Assembly: GCF_024700885.2 (NCBI RefSeq)
Contig: NZ_CP117016.1
Source: Escherichia coli
GTDB taxonomy: Bacteria; Pseudomonadota; Gammaproteobacteria; Enterobacterales; Enterobacteriaceae
DNA: 64,000 nt
Strand: one strand, 5' to 3'
Part shown: positions 61,945 to 62,610 of the stretch, one piece after another
How positions within the stretch are numbered: the first letter of the stretch is position 1
Layout: each line of letters begins with the position of its first letter
Position numbers and translations under genes: made by a program
Notes under the pieces: model-generated
What the model saw: the letters and a program-made list of their open reading frames with translations, nothing else
Database searches by the model: none
Told to the model about the DNA's origin: nothing

Positions 61945-62539
61945 TTTGCTGCTCCTCATCATATCGACCCTGCAAGGTCGGTTGGTTTCTCCACAAAACA
62001 GAGAAGAACACCTGCGGTGGCAGCCGCCCGGATGGATTGGGTTATGAGCCCGTCGTCCGGTGATGCCCTTCTCTGTTTTGTAAAAAGAGCGGTACCAGCC
62101 GGAAGCAAGTGTACAAACTGGTACCGCCAAAGCAGTGGCTGTTGTGGTGGGGTTGTCACTCAGGCGTATGGTCAACCTGACAATCCGGTGTCCTCAACGG
62201 GGAAAGAGTAACCCCGCCATACTTACCGCCGCGCCATTTCGCGGATTACCACAACGCTGAGAGCACTTAGCCAGTTACGGCACCACACTTTGTCGCGGTT
62301 CCATAAATGCCCTCATCGTTGCACCCTGGTCTCTTCCCAGGCGTCAAACCGGATCGCCACGCTGGTTAGGCGTCTTATCAGCATCATCATTGACTTGCAC
62401 ATTCCGGCTACCTGGTTTGTTTGCCCGAGCAAGGAGTGGATTGTCCCCTTTAACGTCCCCAGACCGCTAACGACGCATGTGCCATACGCCGTGTTACAAC
62501 CAAATTTAGTTTAATCTTGCCTGTGTTATGTTTCTTTTA

Positions 62540-62554
62540 GATACATTATGTATC
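62540..62554. promoter_or_regulatory. Palindrome gatacattatgtatc in the repressor-distal early-left control region (candidate operator)
   Basis: Perfect inverted repeat read directly, followed by a tacattgt half-site-like motif. Confidence 0.35.
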
Positions 62555-62576
62555 TCAAGGGTACATTGTCAAGTAT

Positions 62577-62598
62577 AAAAAAACCTGCCGAAGCAGGT
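62577..62598 (-). terminator. Intrinsic terminator downstream of the repressor gene
   Basis: acctgccgaagcaggt hairpin followed by a T7 run on the minus strand. Confidence 0.6.
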
Positions 62599-62610
62599 TA
62601 TAAATATTGA

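Follow-up and report, generated by a model that had tools for sequence, protein, structure and literature searches.

The 666-bp non-coding gap at positions 61945-62610 of the window (the whole 64,000-nucleotide stretch of Escherichia coli DNA analysed here, contig NZ_CP117016.1) was found to carry, with its structured part on the minus strand, a string of helix-closed RNA modules: a long structure named block U, a linker hairpin, a tRNA-shaped junction named DUE, a hairpin-terminator in the position that the small RNA DicF occupies in the prophage Qin, and a long hairpin. At its right end the window carries the immunity region of a lambdoid prophage; similarity searches with the gap gave 100% identity to Escherichia phage Ayreon, and 98-99% to phage cdtI as well as to a set of Stx2c phages. 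The anatomy of this string, its homology to other phage leaders, the covariation of its helices and the equivalence of DUE to a tRNA in the same slot favour, with about as much confidence as doubt, a joint proposal: in a lambdoid prophage of the Ayreon/cdtI type, the stretch serves the early-left (pL) operon as control region and 5' leader, and this leader is a polycistronic non-coding precursor, which would be cut in the manner of a tRNA operon or of the dicBF transcript and would release a small RNA. The first-pass annotation of this DNA had placed a non-coding stretch at 62176-62610 (~435 bp). The lack of a convincing open reading frame (ORF) holds, but the true extent is 61945-62610, and because the gap measures 666 bp rather than 435 bp, the pL leader would run untranslated for ~590 nucleotides (nt) before the first start codon.

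RNA modules of the leader

Similarity searches divide the stretch into blocks with separate histories. From right to left, the leader features, including the DUE helices, are the following.

62500-62318, minus strand: block U, a long-range irregular stem with a variable apical part and two 3' hairpins
62314-62259, minus strand: linker hairpin, in which GAGGGCAUU (62314-06) pairs with AAGUGCUCUC (62268-59); interior variable in other phages
62255-62141, minus strand: DUE, a tRNA-shaped four-way junction of 115 nt, with covariation; single copy in the window, 150 bits with its covariance model
62255-48 with 62148-41, minus strand: DUE helix P1
62244-40 with 62233-29, minus strand: DUE helix P2
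62216-12 with 62202-198, minus strand: DUE helix P3
62186-78 with 62158-50, minus strand: DUE helix P4
62222-17 with 62171-66, minus strand: candidate DUE pseudoknot, loop to junction, GUAUGG with CCAUAC
62140-62082, minus strand: predicted small RNA or attenuator at the DicF position, with a 12-nt linker, a 13-bp GC-rich hairpin (62128-62088) and a U-tract (62086-82)
62085-61989, minus strand: long near-perfect hairpin that separates the terminator from the first gene; the U-tract belongs to its 5' arm

Covariance or structure prediction had been put forward in the first-pass annotation as a way to find conserved RNA folds, and once run it brought out covarying structured modules on the minus strand, block U and DUE. 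Across 54 non-redundant homologues of block U, 98.5% of cells are paired, and 94 cells are changed on both sides against 29 in shuffles (0/500). One of its 3' hairpins bears an invariant GAAGAGA loop. Because G-U pairs are frequent, the functional strand of both block U and DUE is the minus strand, that of the pL transcript. Block U was found in 1374 E. coli genomes, in epsilon15-like phages (TL-2011b and phiV10 among them), and in the ban operon of phage P1, where it lies directly past an annotated tRNA-Ile(CAU), called by ARAGORN as tRNA-Met with anticodon cat, and ahead of ban. Also in P1 (L003, ~4960-5050, upstream of ban), block U is followed, just before the ban start, by TTTTCTGGTGATGAC, which resembles the DicF 5' seed UUUCUGGUGACG. 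The partners of the linker hairpin covary as well (GAGAGCA/UGCUCUC, AAGAGCA/UGCUCUU, AAGCGCA/UGCGCUU), in a weak test whose best control reached 7.9/9.

For DUE, 57 distinct sequences were compared (set A1): 96% of cells pair, 12 pairs are changed on both sides against 3.2 in shuffles (0/500), and slid controls collapse. RNAalifold, run unguided, recovers P1-P4. In a further set of 16 more diverse sequences, gathered with the covariance model (set A5), 10 of 22 pairs are changed on both sides against 4.5. The exchanges are seen in P3, where CGGGG/CCCCG becomes CGAGG/CCUCG, CUGGG/CCCAG or CAGGG/CCCUG, and in P4, where UUGUCA/UGACAA becomes UAACCA/UGGUUA or UUGCCA/UGGCAA. The P3 loops are pyrimidine-rich in all cases (UUACUCUUU, UUAUUCCUU, UUUCCUCCAUUG). 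Ahead of the small RNA, the CACAAC string pairs as the 3' strand of closing helix P1, which leaves no free seed. A GcvB mimic of the AgvB kind, considered on account of CACAACA before the terminator, was rejected on this ground and because AgvB lies at pR'; the anti-sRNAs AgvB and AsxR are short RNAs of the pR' moron site whose CACAACA seed is free (PMC4104026).

DUE is widespread in E. coli. It occurs at 8357 places in 4260 of 5426 complete genomes (~78%), up to 8 per genome and mostly within defective prophages, and none of the eight matches listed carries an annotated feature there. In a scan of one genome per species, DUE was confined to Enterobacterales (Escherichia, Citrobacter, Trabulsiella, Serratia, Izhakiella); the other hits were three chance matches and non-enterobacterial metagenome bin contigs, which are near-identical to E. 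coli prophage or P1 copies and probably represent contamination. One IMG/VR contig (651053022_000007; L050, ~2414-2470) carries a DUE copy broken off within P3, where the 3' end of 16S rRNA takes over (GGTTGGATCACCTCCTTA), probably a chimeric assembly. Rfam, searched on both strands over 60000-64000, gave nothing in the stretch at E<=1, and at E<=10 within 61940-62560 only CC0196 and the hairpin ribozyme, both at chance level.

The tRNA slot, the DicF position and known relatives

The minus strand of TL-2011b reads, in order, promoter, block U, the junction motif GUGCUCUCAGCGUU, tRNA-Arg(UCU), a small hairpin and a DicF-like terminator. The window has the same flanks, with DUE standing where TL-2011b has tRNA-Arg(UCU). 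The junctions are common to both, GCGUU being joined to GUGGCA on the 5' side and GCCAC-G-CCA corresponding to GCCAC-A-ACC on the 3' side; in some DUE copies the 3' flank (AAUCACG...CGUGAU) is itself homologous to the tRNA 3' flank. Systematic extraction showed that the slot is closed by a 7-bp helix (UUGUGGN/NCCACAA) followed by C and often by CCA, and that it holds four kinds of cargo: DUE (105 loci), tRNA-Arg (33 loci), a 111-nt tRNA-like RNA, and a family with a variable interior. The DUE covariance model gave no match at the tRNA-Arg loci. In DUE the 7-bp acceptor-type helix closes the four-way junction, and its tail reads C-AGCCA in the window, against C-CCA or C-CAA in the sister cargos.

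The 111-nt cargo (g16; L208, 2267-2485 region, IMG/VR) has a canonical D arm, a T arm (GCCGG UUCGAAU CCGGC) and CCA, with ~50 nt in place of the anticodon arm, and is not called by ARAGORN. The variable-interior cargos (L145, L147, L160, L164, L169, L182, L203, L231 and L237; groups g1, g5, g7-g10, g14, g17 and g18) share the conserved ends GUGGUGAAUGCGCAGGCUGAUGCGC ... GCCGGAGAUCAGCACCGGCCACCAC around an interior of ~60 to 200 nt, a logic that matches the Rfam STnc100 consensus. This family looks like a scaffold with variable inserts, related to STnc100/PasD. With the tRNA-Arg(UCU) unit of TL-2011b and phiV10, DUE shares the slot, the flanks and a closing helix of 7 bp, after which come C and a CCA-like string. 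It shares with tRNAs in general the four-way junction, and its candidate loop-loop contact could mimic the tRNA elbow; however, it is 115 nt long, has other arm lengths and lacks an anticodon-loop or T-loop signature.

Exchange of modules is also seen in phage SfV (L143, 1500-2570), which shares with the window its cI repressor, OL/pL and first early-left gene. Where the window has block U and DUE, the SfV leader carries a 99-aa orf33, an STnc100-like piece (GUGGUGAAUGCGGCUCAGCGCACGCGG ... CACCGGGAGGCACCCGGCACCACAAC) and a DicF-like terminator. Homologues with a coding gene instead of the region had been considered in the first-pass annotation; SfV does have orf33 in the middle of its leader, but the replacement is partial; it shows that modules can be exchanged and does not make them meaningless.

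The stretch 3' of DUE is variable and ends in a hairpin terminator, the base of which is usually UUGGCGG...CCGCCCUUUUU (every listed IMG/VR copy). A motif tally of 100 IMG/VR copies gave 43 of DicF type, 30 of the window type and 27 other variants, these last 27 being the only copies shown as sequence. In the window, the hairpin has a predicted energy of -22 kcal/mol (z -2.7) and lies in the same place as DicF in Qin. The first-pass annotation had surmised a small RNA in the gap; the hairpin-terminator at the DicF position is such a prediction, although it lies at 62140-62082, outside the coordinates given there. The long hairpin that follows is markedly stable (-48.7 kcal/mol, z -6.4, 0/200 shuffles) and may be an RNase III site. 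Five DicF-like variants (L104, L138, L021, L131 and L134) carry a Shine-Dalgarno sequence and ATG in the terminator loop (aggaggagcgaagataATGttctgccgatcaccg...), which suggests, from sequence inspection, a tiny ORF of ~11 codons overlapping the terminator. A riboswitch-type alternative pairing, between the GGCGGUA repeat in J2/3 and the terminator, was rejected, as the P1 terminator has another stem and the relation is not conserved.

DicF is among the oldest small RNAs known from bacteria, and its Qin operon is one of the closest known parallels to the leader. In K-12 Qin (ydfABC-dicF-dicB), a DUE core of 107 nt, 93.5% identical, lies between ydfC and dicB immediately 5' of dicF. Both operons, under a cI-like repressor, hold a small RNA made of a hairpin and a U-tract, and a 15-bp stem after DicF, within an STnc100 match, is analogous to the long hairpin of the window. 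Qin differs in that three small ORFs precede DUE and block U is absent, and the window small RNA has another loop and 5' part, no match to the DicF model and no clear pairing with ftsZ. For DicF itself, RNase E generates the 5' end, and termination or RNase III the 3' end (PMC5069750, PMC9438474).

In P1/P7, DUE lies ~45 nt downstream of the C1-controlled Pban, with a terminator behind it, and overlaps an annotated 'dicF-like region' (AF234172); its identity is 75-81%, and the changes include compensatory ones. The P1 ban operon also contains block U beside a tRNA, but 2.5 kb downstream, between the tRNA and ban, and the closing-helix and terminator sequences are others. STnc100 (RF02076) and PasD are prophage structured RNAs with a closing helix of the type GUGGUGAAU...CACCAC, found in the same slot in sister phages and after DicF in Qin. 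The interior of DUE differs from theirs, without covariance-model similarity, and they have been described mostly from late (Q/lysis) regions; the STnc100 model (cut 47 bits) found nothing in 61945-62610. STnc100 copies are expressed RNAs in EDL933 lysogens (PMC5331693), and the prophage RNAs STnc100 and PasD associate with Hfq and are abundant (bioRxiv 10.64898/2026.05.13.724894, PMC5331693).

Neither Rfam 15 nor the searchable literature yielded a description of the covarying junction beside DicF, the tRNA-slot equivalence, block U or the cassette grammar, although an older account of 'dicF-like' sequences may partly overlap. Already known are the dicF-like link hinted at in the P1 annotation and the prophage small-RNA families DicF, STnc100, PasA-D and AgvB.

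Control region and neighbouring genes

The part of the gap next to the repressor gene is ordinary and of known kind. Its features and those that flank it are listed here.

62611-63285, minus strand: repressor, with an S24 peptidase domain
62599-62582 (stem) and 62583-62577 (U7 tract), minus strand: intrinsic terminator of the repressor; Ayreon and SfV also annotate a terminator
62549-62565: operator OL1, 17 bp, TGTATCTCAAGGGTACA
62529-62545: operator OL2, 17 bp, TGTTTCTTTTAGATACA
62572-67 (-35 TTGACA), 16-nt spacer, 62550-45 (-10 CATAAT), minus strand: promoter pL, 11/12 match; Ayreon annotates a promoter
63376, plus strand: start of the Cro-like gene
61944-42 (ATG) with Shine-Dalgarno GAGGAG at 61957-52, minus strand: first early-left gene, 120 aa, phrog_204; orf32 in the SfV annotation
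58860-59054, minus strand: excisionase gene, end of the pL operon

The hairpin followed by seven T's begins 12 nt past the repressor stop codon and folds as a 7-bp GC stem with a UUCG loop (-10.3 kcal/mol, z -4.0, 0/200 shuffles equal), which bears out its reading as the terminator of the repressor gene. OL1, OL2 and three OR sites (63303-19, 63320-36 and 63353-69) have the common consensus TGTAyC-N5-GrTACA (repeat families D1, I5, I8 and I11). The palindrome gatacattatgtatc (62540-62554) singled out in the first-pass annotation is present; it is no separate element, however, and consists of the abutting half-sites of OL2 and OL1. The tacattgt motif is likewise there, at 62562-69, as the end of OL1 and part of the pL -35. 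The promoter points leftward, away from cI, with OL1 in its spacer and OL2 over the -10 and the start site, the latter probably near 62538. The promoter scan as a whole was at chance level (3 found against 3.0 expected), and therefore the pL call relies on the 11/12 match together with the operator overlap. With operators common to OR and a near-consensus promoter overlapped by them, the earlier expectation of OL and pL was right.

The first gene behind the leader encodes a 120-aa protein of no assigned function. Leftward of it, on the minus strand, follow genes for a DUF2303/YfdQ protein, a dNMP phosphatase, two DUF551 proteins and the excisionase. Just outside the excisionase gene lies a 729-aa ORF (56563-58752, plus strand) with a weak CHAT-domain match (E 6e-6); as the window has no integrase between the two, the prophage boundary is placed near 58.8 kb. 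Further into the host part of the window, three tRNA-Leu(CAG) genes stand in tandem (51606-51928, minus strand). A weak STnc100-like match (60520-60700, minus strand; 23 bits against a threshold of 47, E 0.04) sits between the DUF2303 and dNMP-phosphatase genes, where Ayreon annotates a terminator, and may be another structured module within the pL operon.

Processing of the leader and competing explanations

From this arrangement we infer a transcription start, processing, Hfq binding, attenuation and targets, in the following order of events. Repressor transcripts would end at the hairpin-U7 terminator, and repressor bound at OL1 and OL2 would shut pL. Upon derepression, pL would make the ~590-nt untranslated RNA of helix-closed modules, which host endonucleases would separate: RNase P would cut DUE at the 5' edge of its acceptor-like helix, RNase E the short unpaired linker that follows DUE, and RNase III the long hairpin of read-through transcripts. 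A DicF-like, Hfq-type small RNA of ~55-60 nt would thus be released, along with stable structured RNAs. The small-RNA terminator would pass only a fraction of polymerases and so attenuate the early-left genes.

A bolder and more doubtful joint claim goes further. Tentatively, DUE may represent an undescribed family of tRNA-shaped phage RNAs that occupies a tRNA slot and from which the tRNA machinery would excise a stable RNA of ~115 nt with its own function, a tRNA mimic or decoy and a platform that sets the 5' end of DicF-family small RNAs being the candidates. DUE, block U, linker hairpins and STnc100-like cargos would then make up a modular 'beads-on-a-string' cassette system of lambdoid, P1-like and epsilon15-like phages in Enterobacterales.

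Several results weigh against processing and tRNA likeness. ARAGORN and Rfam (E<=10) do not detect DUE as a tRNA, and since T-loop and D-loop consensus are missing and the window tail is AGCCA instead of N-CCA, its recognition by RNase P is only plausible. The stability of the single-sequence DUE fold is unremarkable (z -0.96). The sequences compared, from which the structures themselves were derived, are close relatives of one another (83% mean column identity). The pseudoknot is always complementary, with a single compensatory event, in P1/P7. As to the small RNA, the DicF covariance model (RF00039, cut 48 bits), which scores 76.7 bits in Qin, gave no match in the window even at E<=10. In a crude RNAduplex test against ftsZ, the DicF loop pairs at -21..+2 (-16.5 kcal/mol) and the loop of the window RNA pairs best at -36 (-14.6 kcal/mol), which lends no support to a DicF-like pairing at the ftsZ ribosome-binding site; whole DicF and the whole window RNA were both indistinguishable from shuffles in this test.

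Among the alternatives, it is unlikely, though worth some weight, that DUE and block U act mainly in trans, either by mimicking a tRNA or as a decoy, directed at a host enzyme or at a tRNA nuclease that counters phages, or as Hfq-binding regulators of the STnc100/PasD kind with the pyrimidine-rich P3 loop as seed, the release of a DicF-like RNA being incidental. The tRNA-shaped fold in a tRNA slot, the constant pyrimidine content of the P3 loops, the likeness of sibling cargos to STnc100 and the retention of DUE in 78% of E. coli genomes, mostly in defective prophages, all speak for such a role. Nevertheless, DUE is unlike STnc100 by covariance model, and action in trans is compatible with processing of the leader rather than exclusive of it.

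Rather unlikely is a role of block U, DUE or both as cis-acting elements of processive antitermination or anti-Rho activity, akin to HK022 put or the rrn boxA leader, that would carry RNA polymerase through the small-RNA terminator and the long untranslated part with no need of a phage N protein. Among the six pL-operon proteins in the window, Pfam and PHROGs show no antiterminator of N type, and the lack of an N-like gene fits this view, as does the location of the modules between early promoters and intrinsic terminators in the window, P1 and TL-2011b. The very strong conservation of the loops across phages of different immunity suggests a host partner, and the junction motif UGCUCUUU/UGCUCUCA resembles boxA. 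HK022 put is likewise a structured RNA just past PL in a lambdoid phage that does without N-type antitermination, but it consists of two stems in ~70 nt as opposed to multi-module junctions, and a put-like RNA was rejected since HK022 putL (NC_002166), compared by inspection only, bears no resemblance. Moreover, an ordinary tRNA can take the place of DUE ahead of the same terminator, which implies that DUE is not needed for read-through; in P1, block U sits 2.5 kb past the first terminator; and in Qin, which has DUE and lacks block U, dicB is nevertheless located past the DicF terminator. The boxA-like string, for its part, is paired and covaries, and reads UGCGCUUC in Qin-type copies.

The latter result also bears on a classical lambda-type nutL (boxA and boxB) served by a phage N protein, a very improbable reading of the region. 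The position just past pL would fit, and a 5-bp hairpin (CCUGG-GAAGAGA-CCAGG, 62341-62325) with a purine loop recalls the boxB loop of lambda, which is GAAGA. However, no N-like protein is found among the pL-operon products, the loop has 7 nt instead of 5, and the hairpin belongs to block U, itself present as well within the ban operon of P1 and in an epsilon15-like late-region unit. There is no single-stranded boxA beside the hairpin; the sole boxA-like string, UGCUCUCA (62265-58), lies downstream of it as the 3' strand of a covarying helix, and its boxA reading was rejected for that reason. The nut-like site of lambda type that had been surmised in the first-pass annotation is therefore not supported.

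Scarcely credible, finally, is a protein gene hidden in the gap, in either of two frames.

62290-62514, plus strand: 74-aa ORF with a TTG start, the only sizeable ORF in the gap, without a ribosome-binding site
62313-62432, minus strand: 39-aa ORF, annotated in Ayreon

Both ORFs exist, small hypothetical proteins are annotated here in Ayreon, and stop codons are unusually scarce on the plus strand of block U, but the larger ORF has the TTG start and missing ribosome-binding site just noted, homologue indels are not multiples of three, substitutions are compensatory within RNA helices, and the open frame varies among homologues, so that the invariant DNA GCACATTCCGGCTACC is read in three frames (LHIPAT, CTFRLP, AHSGY). 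The hidden-ORF reading, for which no protein-family search was run on either ORF, was rejected on these changes of open frame and on this one invariant motif, read in all three frames. Opposite block U (62279-62497, plus strand), a median of 72 of 73 codons is open in homologues, yet in frames that differ among them. This openness looks like a composition effect of the RNA, and could mislead gene callers, as Ayreon, cdtI and others annotate hypothetical proteins there.

Whatever the part played by each module, a conserved fold stands beside DicF that has no Rfam family and is not mentioned in the searchable literature. If DUE is a tRNA-like processing module, it would account for the 5' ends of DicF-family RNAs, for a variable small RNA being kept behind a constant scaffold, and for the swapping of tRNA genes, tRNA mimics and regulatory RNAs within one transcription unit in unrelated phage types. 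The leader would also offer a concrete case of phage early-operon control without an N protein.

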